From contig CAZEBC010000083.1 in assembly GCA_964510165.1 (NCBI GenBank), positions 1 to 10,917 of the forward strand: 10,917 bases of DNA, given 5' to 3'. The stretch comes from an uncultured bacterium. GTDB lineage: Bacteria; Abyssobacteria; SURF-5. Numbering within the stretch: the stretch's first letter is position 1; every line of letters begins with the position of its first letter. Made by a program: the position numbers. This document shows positions 6,001-10,917 of the stretch, in pieces.

Positions 6001-9000
6001 CAGAAAGTAACCTACAGACCTAGTTTCTCTATCTTGCGGCTACTCCGTATCTACGCCTCGGTTTTTGCCGCCTTTGCCGCACCTTTGGGAAGCAATTGAT
6101 CTCGCGCGTGCTCTCACTGACTTCATCGTTCAGCCTGAACAGGATCACGAAGCCACCGAGGGACATCAATCCGGCCAGCAGAAAAGTGGCCTGGAAACCG
6201 ACAAACTGGGCGATGGCGCCGCCGACGCCCGCGGACATCGCGGTCCCGACTCCGACCAGGGCGGAGTATACGCTCCACTCGAAGCTTTCCTGGTTCTCGT
6301 CGAGATGTTGATTCCAGATTCGGAGCCATGCGGGAAAGGCCAATCCGCTCGCGACCCCGAACAGAACCTGCGCGACGTAGATGACCGCAATATGTGTGGC
6401 GAATATGTAGAGCACGGGGACAAGCGAGACAAAAAACACGCCGGTCATCAGCCATCTGACGCTGTGATTCTGGTCGTTGCTGTCAATGCGGCGGGAAAAA
6501 GGTATCTGCACAATTGATTTCGTTATGAGGAACAGCCCGCTTGCTATGCCGGCGGCAAAAACAGTCCCCCCTTCAAGTGAGTCCTTAATGAAGATTGCGA
6601 GGATTGGCTCAACCAATCCAAATCCTGATACGACGCAGACATCAGAAATCATTAACAATTTGATAATCTTGTTCACAATTTATTATGCGAAAGGGCCCAA
6701 TTGTACGCTATATGAAGGGCGAACCATAAGCCGTGGAAGCACTTAGGGCTGTTACATTGACACACGAATTATTACTCTGTATAATACGCGATTGTAAGTG
6801 ACGGAGGGAGTTTGTGTTACGAGAAGCCCGGCGAACGAATCCCAAGACCGCAACTGCTTTTATCGGGTGCGTTCTTATTCTGGCGGCGATTCTTCTGTTT
6901 GAATACGGCGATTCGTTCGATTTTTATTTTGTGGGCGACGATTTCGCTTTCATTGAGCTGGTTTCGCGGGAGAAGGTCAATATCCTGTGGGAGTCTCACA
7001 GCGATTGGCATTACTCTCCGCTTGGGGTGCTCTTGAATGCGTTGCCGGCTGCCTTTGGCGTGTTCGAGCCGGCCTGGTATGTCCTGACGGGATTCTTGCT
7101 GTTTCTCGCGTGCGCGATCATGGTGTTGCTGCTGTACTATGAGATCGAGAAGGATATTGTCGGGGGACTTGCCGCCGCGGTGATCTATGTGACGGCGATA
7201 CCGCAGGCCGAGGTCATTTATTGGAAGACGGGCAATCAGACATCTGCCATGGCGCTGTTCTCGCTGGTGGCGCTGATGCTGTACATGCGCTTCCTGAAGC
7301 ATGGAGCGCGGTGGTCCTTCGCGGGCTGCATCCTCATGTTTGCCGCTTCGATGCTGAGCATCGAGCAAGGAATCGTCACGTTTGGGGTCATCTTCATATA
7401 TGATTTGATGTTCAATGCCGGACCGAAATTCCGGGCGGCGGTAGACGGCGGGGTGCGGAGGCGGATCGGGGTTTCCCTTGTGTTGCGCCTGGTGGCTCTT
7501 TCGGTGGTTCCTATTTCACTTACCGCTCTGAAAATGGGGCTTGGCTTTCAACTTTCTCCCTTGACCTCGCATCCGTGGTGGGCGATCCGGTTCCTCTTCA
7601 AGGATACGGTCGCGCGGCTCGTTGATTTCAATAATATTCTTGCGCCTGCGTTTGGGTCGCGAGATGCGTTTCAACCGGCGGGTCTTCTCATATTCTTCCT
7701 CCTCTTTCTCTGGACCCTGATAAGGAAGAGCGTTCCGGGACTGTTTTTTCTGGTTGTCGGGTCAGGGGCTATTCTCATGATATCCATAGCCGCCGGAGGC
7801 CCCAATTTCAGGTACTTCTGTCTGCCGCTGGCTTTTTTCGCATGTTTTCTTTCCGCGCTGTTCAAGGACATGTCGGGGATCGGCGCGCGCGCCTTGGAGA
7901 GGATTTTCCCGGCGGCTGGGGGTTCGGTCGCTCGTTGGCTTCGCTATATCCTGTTTTCGGGGATGTGCGCCGGGCTTGCGTATGCGGGTTACCGGGGCAT
8001 TATTGAAAGGCGAGCATATTGGGGTTTGGCCTCTTTGATAGAGCGCAACATAGTCCAGGCTGTGGAGAGCCACTTCGTTTCGGGCAGGGTGGGACCGCGC
8101 CAGAAGGTGTATCTCTTGAACATGCCGGAGCATTTCGGGTCCGAGAAGTATCCGATTTTCTATGTCGGGAGCCATTCGCTCATGCCGGATTTGAGGCACA
8201 GGCTGGGCGGTTTGTCGGAACGGGTGGAGTTGATTGCAAGCGGCACTCTGTTCGAGATGACGTTCATGGGCGAGCGGTTCACGTATCGCGCGCTTGGCAG
8301 AGACAGGATGGTGAATCAAGGGGACGTGGAAGAATTGATGGAGGGCGGTCACATCGTTTTGCATTTCTCGCCTGACCTGATGAGCCTGGCGCAGGCCGAA
8401 GTCCGCCCCCAGACAAGAGCGAAAAAGGTTTTGAAGCGCGCGAAGCCGCATGTTATAATAAGTGGCCGGTAGCCCACGTCTGAGACGAGAGTATGCAGGA
8501 ACGAATATGAGAATCATTTTGTATACAGGAAAAGGCGGGGTAGGGAAGACGACCATTTCGGCGGCGACCGCCGTTCGCTGCGCGGAGATCGGTTACAAGA
8601 CCATCGTCATGAGCACCGACGCCGCTCATAGCCTCGCCGATTCGCTGGACGTCAAGATTGGGCATAAGCCGAAGAAAGTGGCCGAGAACCTCGTGGCGGA
8701 GGAGATCAATGTCAACGAGGAACTGAAGAAGAACTGGGGCCGAATCCAGAAGTATGTGACGAAGTTTCTCAGGAGCCGGGGCTTCGAGGACCTGATGGCC
8801 GAGGAGTTCGCGGTGTTTCCGGGGATGGAAGAGCTGTTCAGCCTGCTCAAGCTGAAGGAATATGCGGAAAAAGAGCAATATGAGGTGGCCATAATCGACT
8901 GCGCGCCGACGGCGAGCACCGTCCGGATGCTGAGCGTGCCCGACGTTATCCGCTGGTACATGGACCGCTTCTTCGATATCGAGCGGCGCATCGTGAAGAC

Positions 9001-10917
9001 GGTGCGTCCGATCGCCGAGCGTATCACCAAGGTGCCGTTTCCGACGGACGAAGTGTATGATTCGGTGGAAGACCTGTTTCACAGAGTCGAGGGCATGAAA
9101 GAGGTGCTGACCGACCCCAAGAAGGCCTCGATCAGGCTGGTGTTCAATCCCGAGAAAATGGTCATCAAGGAGTCTCAGCGGGCATACAGCTATCTGAGCC
9201 TTTTCGGGTTTACCGTTGATGCGGTGATTGCGAATCGGATTTATCCGGACGAGATAGATGACCCGTACTTCGAGCGATGGCGCAAGATACAGCCCAAATA
9301 CCTTGCGGAGGCAAGAACGATCTTTGATCCTCTGCCCATGTTCACGAGCAAGTTGTTCGACCGCGAGATGGTGGGGATCAAGCTTCTCCACGAGATGGCG
9401 GAGAATATTTTTGGAACGGTCGACCCTGCAACCGTGTTTTACAAAGAGCCGCCGATCAAGACCAGGCAGGCCGACGGGCGATACACCATGTCGATTCACC
9501 TGCCCGGAACGGAGAAGCGGGATTTGAACATCTGGGTTGCGGGCGAAGAACTCATCATCGAGGTCGGCAATTATCGTCGCAATATTCTGTTGCCTCGAAG
9601 CCTGGCCAATTCGGAAGTGGTCGAGGCGAAATTCGAAGGGGATTCTCTCAACATCGTGTTCGGGAAATAGACCCCATGCTCTCGAAAGCACCGGGCGACA
9701 GTGACGGATTTGTCCACGAGCTTTTGCCTCTCCTGAAGAACGGATTCATGATTCTTCGTTCGATTCTCGACGTGTTGATTGAGAAGTTCGAGGAAGCCGA
9801 GAAGAATCGGCAGGTGGACATCAGGCGGGAGACCTATGAGTCGATTATTGACGCGCTTGAGTCCGAGGTCGAAGGCCTGCGCGGCAAGGAAACCGATTCC
9901 CTGGATCAGGCCAAGGTGGAAGTGATAGAGGCCATCATCTCGGTTCTCCTGAAGGAAATGGAGCAGTTCGAATCGGGCAGGCGCGCCGGTCGCGCGCGGA
10001 AAGTGCACATCAGCTAGGAAGCGGGCCTGCCGTCAACCGAACCACACTGATTTCCGTTCCGCCAGCATCTCATCGAGCATTTTCTGAATTCGTTCCCGGA
10101 CGTCTTCTCTTAGCTTGCTGACGAGCACCTCATTGCCGGCATCGGCTTCCGCGTACTTGTCAAACCTGATGGGCTTGCCGAAGCCGATTTTCCATTTGCT
10201 CGGGAGCGGTATCAGCCCCAGCGGCCCCAAGAGCGGCCAGCTCGGAGTGACCGCGAGGTAGGGGATGCCGATCGGCTTGGCCAGTCGTTCCAGCCGCGCG
10301 ATTATCGGATATGTTTCTTCAGCCCCGACCACCGCGACCGGGACAAGAGGGGCCTTGGTGCGAATGCACAACTTTATGAAGCCACCCCGTCCGAATCTTT
10401 GCAGCCGGTACCGTTCCTTGAACGGTTTGCCCGTTCCCTTGTTGCCTTCGGGGAAGACACAGACCAGGTTGTCCTTGGCGAGCAGGCGTTCGGCGTTTTC
10501 CTGCGAAGCCCTGACTGCGCCTATCCGGGTGAGGATGGGCGAGAGGAACGGCATTGTGATGAAAGTATCCTCGATGAGGAAACGCACCTCCCGCTCGAGC
10601 TGGCTCTCGAGTCGAACGGCCTCGCTGATCATCAGCCCGTCAAAGGGGAGCATGCCGGAATGATTCGCGACGAGCAACGCTTTCCCCTTGTCGGGCACGT
10701 TCTTGATGCCGGAGACCTGCACGCGCCAGTATTTCTGATACAGCCACTCCATCAGAGGTTCAAGCTTGGCTGAATAGATGGGGTCCTTGCCGAACTCATC
10801 GACATGCTCGGACCGGTTTCGCAACTGGAACGATCCCCAAAGCTTGCCCATTCTGGAGACCAGAGGCACACGGAAGATTCGACTCAACAGGCGTGTTTCA
10901 CCCCTGGTCCCGGTTTC

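Follow-up and report, generated by a model that had tools for sequence, protein, structure and literature searches.

Gene content of the locus

The window, i.e. the whole analyzed stretch of 10,917 nucleotides, ends within a group of seven genes. A Get3d-type ATPase gene and a small partner gene on the forward strand lie tail to tail with a reverse-strand block encoding an acyltransferase, a ParA, an SDR, a phasin and a PhaR-phasin fusion (Table 1). The initial annotation had described a single cluster; the genes are indeed neighbours, but Get3d is located on the opposite strand and the 113-aa partner gene had been overlooked.

Table 1. Features of the Get3d locus. Positions are contig positions, which are identical to window positions up to 10,917.
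Feature	Position	Strand	Remarks
Sigma-70-type promoter of the Get3d-partner pair	8431..8459	+	TTGAAG-17-TATAAT; without putative PhaR operator nearby
Get3d-type ATPase, 387 aa	8507..9670	+	ATG 8507, stop 9670; ORF intact
Helical partner gene, 113 aa	9676..10017	+	tail IxI/V motif (V-H-I); long form, extra helical hairpin
PlsC-fold acyltransferase, catalytic part	10033..10917	-	H65-x6-D72 in aligned domain; Pfam DAGAT PF03982
Acyltransferase N-terminus	11018-11200, past window end	-	LGxDP[FL] peptide
Soj-like ParA	11175-11954, past window end	-	
Extended SDR	11954-12982, past window end	-	
Phasin	13158-13553, past window end	-	Pfam Phasin over cut-off
PhaR-phasin fusion	13566-14153, past window end	-	Pfam PHB_acc_N over cut-off
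phaR promoter	14204-14232, past window end	-	
Putative PhaR operator	14208-14222, past window end	-	palindromic; within phaR promoter

The start codon of Get3d is consistent with the upstream promoter, which is common to seven of the eight aligned family upstream regions. As initially annotated, the protein combines a Get3/ArsA ATPase domain, present as a single copy (ArsA_ATPase PF02374, 323.8 bits), with a C-terminal alpha-crystallin domain at residues 323–385 (ArsA_HSP20 PF17886, 75.2 bits). Among the NCBIfam matches given before, GET3 (TIGR00345, 276 vs. a cut-off of 135) was retained, but the NosAFP equivalog NF050088 (190.1 bits vs. a curated cut-off of 325), PhaR (78.9 vs. 109) and phasin TIGR01837 (58.7 vs. 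94.7) were below cut-off. The Pfam match to PHB_acc_N was reproduced, and the phasin-related model NF047773 was passed (35.5 vs. 35). The criteria for Get3d (deviant Walker A, switch I/II, no CxxC) were taken from PMC10248533. The deviant Walker A GKGGVGKT, D38 of switch I, D131 of switch II and N243 are kept, and CxxC is absent from the protein, which has two cysteines (25 and 132). The single domain, the presence of only two cysteines and a score of 86.9, far under the ArsA cut-off of 650, speak against an ArsA arsenite pump; ars genes were not seen in the neighbourhood.

The partner protein matches no Pfam or NCBIfam family at E ≤ 0.001. Its predicted fold of three helices (pLDDT 69) has no PDB match at E ≤ 0.001, and the Atlas search gave no usable match. 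The IxI/V motif, a known ligand of alpha-crystallin domains, is found at the partner C-terminus in 59/85 vs. 28/900.

The acyltransferase gene is interrupted by an assembly gap of 100 N (contig 10918-11017), and its start was placed at position 11200 as in the intact relatives of 429–486 aa. The DAGAT scores are marginal (29.6 and 23.2 bits vs. a cut-off of 22), the fold search pointed to the PlsC/GPAT/PatA fold in general and to nothing narrower, and the Atlas search returned general acyltransferase clusters only. The long, low-complexity N-terminus bears the LGxDP peptide. ParA and the LGxDP acyltransferase are absent together in 4/4 family genomes without the block, and the motif is missing from all six ParA-less acyltransferase paralogs read. 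The ParA carries basic residues at positions which we take to be Soj DNA contacts.

For the putative operator, 11 sites of at least 18 bits were detected in the source genome (G000), compared to 0 after shuffling, and 8–15 sites in each relative, compared to 2–3 with the reversed pattern. Outside the training set, sites are located upstream of a third phasin-like gene (G000, G001, G006, G007), of an enoyl-CoA hydratase-ETF (ECH-ETF) operon (G000, G001, G007, G010) and of Pfam phasins (G472, G457), and a perfect site heads the run BagA-BagB-Get3d-partner-PhaR-phasin in G472. None was found in the nine upstream regions of Get3d in the source family or at Get3d in G293, G448, G213 and G318. The plasmid search with PhaR revealed distant PhaR matches only.

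Conservation in the source family and beyond

As reported in the initial annotation, Get3d orthologs of 81–85% identity occur in 8/9 relatives, and in seven of these the contig of Get3d also carries a phasin match at a distance of up to 12 kb (G001, G002, G004, G005, G006, G009, G007). In G007 the distance is 10.8 kb with about 7 kb of unrelated genes in between; Get3d and phasin are unlinked in G008, and also lie apart in G010. Direct adjacency, previously given for G005 and G006, holds for G005, but in G006 the partner gene lies in between. Since both genomes are without ParA and the long-N-terminus acyltransferase, this arrangement is best read as a loss of the middle genes. In total, four family genomes kept Get3d and phasin and lost ParA and the acyltransferase ortholog; G005 also lost the partner gene. 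In G003 (77% complete) the block is present without Get3d. An mfd-like gene upstream, named from its translation, is equally conserved (6/6 relatives with a contig reaching it). Because of this, and of the opposite strands, the source family alone cannot separate function from synteny.

Among 390 outside genomes, in which kin are not independent, PhaR occurs in 18 of the 42 Get3d genomes versus 51/348 (odds ratio 4.4). Linkage of Get3d and PhaR within 4 kb was observed in 5 of these 18 genomes, which belong to five families and show rearranged orders; by our estimate, chance would account for about 0.1–0.2% per genome. In four other families (G293, G448, G472, G213) Get3d, partner and PhaR follow each other on one strand, and in a fifth (G457) PhaR is found 3.9 kb downstream of Get3d. 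G213 contains all seven genes in rearranged order. The linked outside ATPases share 36–57% identity with the ATPase of the window, and a single clade of all linked Get3d was not seen in the FastTree tree, which has long branches. The long partner form (146–188 aa) is present in 11/18 outside genomes with Get3d and PhaR; beyond these and the source class it was seen in family f12 only.

Of the 18 outside genomes that contain both genes, 11 have them unlinked. In a sample of 151 genomes of another phylum there was no enrichment (four with both genes, odds ratio 1.1), and linkage was found in 0/13 informative genomes. Here, Get3d was defined as a PF17886 match with E < 1e-13, which kept 28 genomes, because PF17886 alone is too broad, with matches in 143/151 genomes that are mostly short ORFs of small-heat-shock size. 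None of 80 metagenome Get3d loci was linked, only 16 of which had 5 kb on both sides. The tie to PhaR and phasins is thus limited to a subset of Get3d and is absent at most Get3d loci. Other neighbours are acyltransferases (L096, L118) and the chlorosome genes csmC-csmA (L149), and the partner gene lies directly 3′ of Get3d at 59/105 informative loci.

An early reading as plain family synteny was overturned by the outside co-occurrence and the same-strand runs. These runs, the G457 locus and the perfect site in G472 support a functional tie. The initial interpretation is thereby supported in part: the tie to the granule genes is limited to a subset of Get3d, and the handling of granule proteins by Get3d is a prediction. 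At the same time, the observed gene neighbourhood extends beyond what was first described, into several distant families.

A candidate lipid-body module

As stated initially, neither PhaC_N nor class III PhaC gave a match over cut-off in the 10 family genomes. Searches of G000 with a class III PhaC, and with the PhaE-like protein encoded upstream of it, gave nothing at E ≤ 1. The WS/DGAT profile PF03007 matched 0/10 family genomes and 12/38 others, including G010; the matches of the class III PhaC and WS/DGAT profiles elsewhere served as working controls. The empty synthase searches with working controls, together with phasins and beta-oxidation genes in the putative regulon, support the term "non-PHA".

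We propose, with a probability of roughly 0.5, that the module serves an intracellular acyl-lipid body other than PHA, with Get3d in a servicing role. A neutral acyl lipid would be produced by the DGAT2/MGAT-like acyltransferase, to which the SDR may contribute as a reductase, and the phasin-like amphipathic proteins would form the coat of the body. Via the palindrome, PhaR-phasin may repress its own operon, other phasins and the ECH-ETF operon until it is titrated by the body, as PhaR is by PHB granules. The Soj-like ParA, presumably recruited by the LGxDP peptide of the acyltransferase, would position the body. The partner is predicted to dock on the alpha-crystallin domain of Get3d through its C-terminal IxI/V motif, and its long form may adapt Get3d to the lipid-body job. 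By means of ATP and its hydrophobic chamber, Get3d could then bring amphipathic proteins or lipid to the surface of the body or remove them from it.

There is also a real chance that Get3d and its IxI partner act together as chaperones of broad use, for hydrophobic helices or for membrane lipids, and that the phasin module is independent, so that clustering with lipid-metabolism genes would reflect shared physiology and no action on phasins or the body. The far wider occurrence of the partner than of phasin beside Get3d, the other neighbours at Get3d loci and, in the source family, the separate Get3d promoter without an operator fit such a pair, as does the in vitro binding of tail-anchored clients by Get3d described in PMC10248533. 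The tight Get3d-partner-PhaR order in four families, the long partner that tracks PhaR, and the position of Get3d behind a putative operator in G472 argue for the lipid-body module instead.

A PHA-like polyester from a divergent or undetected synthase, with Get3d servicing an ordinary carbonosome, is improbable. It would account for the PhaR and phasin domains, which are PHA-granule families, and for full-length PhaC-like hydrolases (TIGR01836, 201–246 bits) in G293, G448, G213, G380 and G267, the first of which passes PhaC_N; the family genomes are moreover 77–98% complete, G000 being 97% complete with 14,710 N bases. However, the inspected PhaC-like proteins of linked genomes carry a Ser lipase box, in contrast to Cys in the controls G143 and G330, and neither were such hydrolases found in the 10 family genomes nor did the PhaC and PhaE-like queries detect anything in G000. 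Furthermore, the phasin profile also matches genomes used as controls, among them Methanosarcina acetivorans and Synechococcus elongatus, which we take to be non-PHA organisms. Inherited gene order without functional meaning, as the equally stable unrelated genes of the source family and the lack of linkage in the 151-genome sample might indicate, is very hard to reconcile with close linkage in rearranged orders across five families.

A broader generalization is speculative and, in our view, rather doubtful: a widespread, undescribed bacterial lipid-droplet system with a DGAT2-like enzyme as lipid producer, PhaR and phasins without PHA, ParA positioning via the N-terminal peptide of this enzyme, and Get3d with an IxI/V adaptor on its alpha-crystallin domain, which would load coat proteins onto organelles with a monolayer at the expense of ATP. 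If true, such coat loading would account for the occurrence of Get3d in plastids and next to chlorosome genes.

PMC10248533 treats the role of Get3d, and likewise that of the alpha-crystallin domain, as open. The locus offers a candidate ligand for this domain and a candidate physiological setting. The candidate ligand, the partner, occurs at more than half of the Get3d loci analyzed. The locus further hints at a storage organelle in which PhaR and phasins are put to new use without PhaC or WS/DGAT, and whose putative operator can be mapped. Although the organism is uncultured, purified proteins or E. coli would suffice to test each of these leads.

Relation to known systems

With the PHA granule PhaR/phasin system the locus shares the PHB_acc_N DNA-binding domain, PF05597 phasins and a palindrome that lies in the promoters of phaR and of phasins. 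It differs in four respects: no PhaC was detected, the PhaR carries a phasin-like domain as a fusion, ECH-ETF belongs to the putative regulon, and the genes are linked to an acyltransferase, ParA, SDR and Get3-type ATPases. ParA/MinD cargo-positioning systems of the McdAB type are resembled in that the gene of an orphan Soj-like ATPase directly precedes that of a protein whose N-terminus bears a short, conserved peptide. The candidate partner here, suggested by adjacency and joint loss, is an enzyme, and a lipid body would be the cargo.

The actinobacterial SRPBCC-ArsA-DUF5304-glucokinase cluster, presumably of the SCO2127 / Rv2183c type, likewise has a small helical gene with the same IxI tail directly after Get3d, but in the short form and with neither phasin nor PhaR nearby; DUF5304 gives weak matches in three partner-type proteins of such ArsA clusters. 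Among the papers listed for SCO2127, Rv2183c/Rv2184c, Rv0501/Rv0502 and Myxococcus lipid bodies, there was nothing on a Get3d-phasin link. The ArsA arsenite pump ATPase belongs to the same fold family, but its tandem domains, metal-binding cysteines and ars operon are not seen here. An assignment of At1g26090 to the plastoglobules found no support (0 papers, 0 matches in the supplement) and was dropped.

The acyltransferase resembles DGAT2-like enzymes, i.e. cyanobacterial Slr2103, a lipid-droplet protein (PMC12223511), and DIESL/TMEM68, in its PlsC-type fold, His/Asp dyad and marginal Pfam DAGAT match; E. coli with DIESL forms TAG inclusions (PMC10482677). By the descriptions it is set apart by its His-Asp spacing (H-x6-D vs. 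H130/D136 in DIESL), and the long low-complexity N-terminus with LGxDP is a feature of the enzyme described here.

The closest relatives of the ATPase are the Get3d group (NosGet3d 3IGF/8EGK, AtGet3d 8ELF; Group 6 of PMC6593721, already known in non-photosynthetic bacteria), with the same single Get3 domain, C-terminal alpha-crystallin domain, deviant Walker A and absence of CxxC. It speaks against the lipid-body reading that for the two Synechocystis Get3d proteins, enrichment in lipid droplets versus lysate is only 2.6x and 3.8x, below the authors' 9x filter (PMC12223511 Table S2). In favour of it, AtGet3d co-purified with a lipid-sized ligand according to PMC10248533, in which the term "IXI" occurs 0 times. 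The active-site residue set is complete in the ATPase of the window, as in Sll0086 and the green-bacteria forms and unlike in NosGet3d and AtGet3d, from which it also differs by the IxI-tailed partner gene, the PhaR/phasin context and the NosAFP score below cut-off.

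Gene order and the partner of Get3d

The window covers the initial 10,917 bases of contig C83 in the source genome (G000; 4.17 Mb, 97% complete). Its Get3d-type ATPase retains Walker A, switch I, switch II and N243 and lacks CxxC on sequence reading, and therefore fits the Get3d sequence criteria in the excerpted text of PMC10248533. Such proteins have already been catalogued in many non-photosynthetic bacteria (PMC6593721, excerpt), and sequence record L050 carries an ortholog of 85% identity. The counts of the initial annotation, i.e., orthologs in 8 of 9 relatives and a phasin no more than 12 kb away in 7 of these 8, were reproduced, while three of the NCBIfam labels it quoted score under their cut-off. 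Its gene list lacked a helical partner gene of 113 aa that begins 5 bases past the ATPase stop. The acyltransferase (spanning a 100-N gap), ParA, SDR, phasin and PhaR-phasin genes are located on the minus strand, convergent to Get3d. The reading preferred here, with a probability of about 0.5, is a lipid body whose lipid would be made by the acyltransferase, with phasins as coat, PhaR as regulator, ParA for positioning, and Get3d and its partner servicing the body.

The partner was surveyed with a motif-blind rule at 125 Get3d loci, of which 105 were informative. A small ORF follows Get3d at 85 of these, and 59 of the 85 end in [IV]x[IV], compared to 28 of 900 behind other G000 genes under the same rule. 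In small heat-shock proteins, the beta4-beta8 groove of the alpha-crystallin domain is an established binding site for IxI/V tails, and the partner's tail may bind the alpha-crystallin domain of Get3d. The latter domain is without the usual dimer loop and no oligomer is known (PMC10248533, excerpt). A long version of the partner, of 146-188 aa and with one additional helical hairpin, is present in 11 of 18 outside genomes with both Get3d and PhaR and was found elsewhere, outside the window's class, only in family f12; the window partner is of this type with a shortened N-terminus. The partner is gone from one relative (G005). Two different Get3d genes in tandem are found in records L113, L138, L155 and L157.

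Coordinates of the Get3d gene and of further features (C, contigs of G000; L, sequence records)
Feature	Location	Remarks
Get3d-type ATPase	window 8507-9670	Pfam ArsA_ATPase + ArsA_HSP20
Housekeeping run	window 24-5364	ordinary; FAH hydrolase, dapL, folB, folK, panB, panC, panD (names from translations)
Rieske ferredoxin	window 5423-5746	adjoins MFS-like ORF; GC lower around 6000-7500
Short MFS-like ORF	window 6029-6676	215 aa, half of Pfam model
Membrane protein	window 6814-8472	552 aa, no Pfam match; 3' end overlaps Get3d promoter; among loci compared, G005 and G006 alone have homologs close to Get3d
Tandem BagA/BagB-like ArsA pair	C1:33752-37411	conserved in family; followed by 146-aa protein (no Pfam match, tested on G001 homolog) and alpha/beta hydrolase-like gene; such pairs flank PhaR or Get3d in other genomes
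Second SDR-acyltransferase pair	C64:9578-11974	39% and 51% identical, no ParA, no LGxDP; precedes sulfate-activation-like genes; kept where first pair was lost
Phasin/phasin-like genes	C81:7289-7783; C325:1-675	two more, each downstream of putative operator; C325 type without Pfam match in relatives
Get3d upstream of csmC-csmA	L149:9914-12171	directly upstream of these chlorosome envelope genes; second Get3d nearby
PhaC-like hydrolases	L223:15541-16722; L233:7584-8699; L234:6955-8040	full-length, GWSMGG (Ser) instead of catalytic Cys box
Dissimilatory sulfite reductase-like gene pair	L279:1219-2531	G006; putative operator ahead (name from translation)

Linkage within the family and a putative PhaR operator

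Within the family, Get3d and phasin are only weakly tied. Get3d is served by a separate promoter on the strand opposite to the phasin block, and an mfd-like gene upstream of Get3d is equally constant (6/6). The ParA and acyltransferase orthologs are absent from G005, G006, G002 and G008, which explains the closeness of Get3d and phasin in the first two. In the 77% complete G003, a different gene follows phasin-SDR-ParA-acyltransferase, and a Get3d ortholog was not detected. In G010, from the same class, Get3d and partner face acyltransferase-ParA-SDR, and PhaR-phasin lies about 30 kb off. Local profiles, which did recover distant controls, detected phasin or PhaR at 0 of 80 metagenome Get3d loci, only 16 of them with 5 kb on both sides. 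Among 151 genomes of another phylum, Get3d was found in 28, PhaR in 20 and both in 4, none of these 4 having the two on the same contig; a phasin match was present in 13 of the 28, in no case near Get3d.

The palindrome TGACGC-N3-GYGTYA was found in aligned upstream DNA in the phaR promoter spacer (8/8 genomes) and twice ahead of a second phasin (4/4). A matrix built from these 16 sites detected 11 strong sites in G000 versus 0 in shuffled DNA; of these 11, three belong to the training set and two seem to represent a single site shared by overlapping contigs. Independent sites are located ahead of a third phasin-like gene in 4 genomes (no Pfam match, likeness by eye), of enoyl-CoA hydratase-ETF in G000, G001, G007 and G010, and of Pfam phasins in the outside genomes G472 and G457. 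Other sites lie inside genes or ahead of unrelated genes; for the relatives, 40 sites were read, a subset of all. The site positions suggest that PhaR binds this putative operator. It is absent upstream of Get3d in 9/9 family and class genomes as well as in G293, G448, G213 and G318, and a perfect copy precedes the G472 run. That Get3d is a general chaperone merely sharing physiology with the lipid genes is a serious alternative, although less probable than the lipid body.

Storage compound and lipid bodies elsewhere

Profile searches found no PhaC_N, class III PhaC or WS/DGAT in 10 family genomes, so that the reported lack of PhaC held with two profiles; the class III PhaC and WS/DGAT profiles do work, as they exceeded their cut-offs in 4 and 12, respectively, of 38 other genomes. 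The class III PhaC of G143 had no match in G000 at E<=1. Read on the best PhaC-like match per genome, the nucleophile is Ser in G293, G448, G213, G267, G380, G457, G302, G472, G318, G011 and G487 and Cys in G143 and G330, and the motif was not matched in G144 and G234. Ser-box hydrolases of this kind may be mis-annotated as PHA synthases. A hidden polyester synthase is considered unlikely.

WS/DGAT is present in G010, G293, G457, G302 and G318 and was not found by profile search in G448, G472 and G213. The acyltransferase of the module exceeds the Pfam DAGAT cut-off by a narrow margin, and its predicted fold is PlsC-like (pLDDT 85); the related enzymes DIESL (PMC10482677, excerpt) and Slr2103 (PMC12223511, excerpt) produce neutral lipids. 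An N-terminal LGxDP[FL] is found in the acyltransferases of the family, G010, G293, G448, G472, G318, G231, G457 and G302. It is absent from ParA-less paralogs and from the acyltransferases of G213, G380 and G267, though ParA adjoins these three. ParA and the motif-bearing acyltransferase are jointly missing in 4/4 genomes.

AtGet3d co-purifies with a ligand of ~750 Da (PMC10248533, excerpt). In the cyanoglobule proteome, the two Get3d of Synechocystis showed enrichments of 2.6x and 3.8x relative to lysate and of 11x and 7.6x relative to membrane under control growth, and both fell out at the authors' 9x lysate filter (PMC12223511, Table S2, excerpt), which makes the enrichment weak evidence either way for a lipid-body role.

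Linkage outside the class and known systems

The Get3d-PhaR tie recurs outside the class. In 390 outside genomes of the same domain (Get3d threshold E<=1e-60), 42 have Get3d, 69 a PhaR domain and 18 both, with an odds ratio of 4.4 in which kin are not independent. Get3d, partner and PhaR are consecutive on the same strand in four families (G293, G448, G472, G213); in a fifth (G457), PhaR lies 3.9 kb downstream of Get3d, facing acyltransferase and ParA. The Get3d half and the PhaR half are both at contig ends in G302 and G380, and linkage is absent in the remaining 11 of the 18. All seven genes are present in G213 in changed order, with Get3d divided between two contigs, and the order in G472 is BagA-like, BagB-like, Get3d, partner, PhaR, phasin. 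SDR-ParA-acyltransferase also occurs in G213, G380, G267, G472 and G318. In G335, G488, G380, G213, G457 and G302, PhaR lies facing the acyltransferase. An ArsA-type pair directly follows PhaR in G144 and G076, and in G112 the first gene of such a pair, at least, does so. Get3d proteins from the linked loci share 36-57% identity with that of the window and are dispersed across a FastTree tree; of these proteins, some carry the source labels Deltaproteobacteria, Nitrospirae and Ca. Alcyoniella. A chance neighbourhood is very improbable.

The excerpt of PMC2963123 on arsA operons mentions phasin 0 times. In the literature searched, with subscription papers and bioRxiv supplements outside the search and some sources present in part, no description was found of a Get3/ArsA-phasin link, of these genes in combination, of the putative operator or of the partner with its IxI tail. 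The component parts are of known kinds. ParA cargo systems are the known model for the positioning role that ParA may have by analogy.
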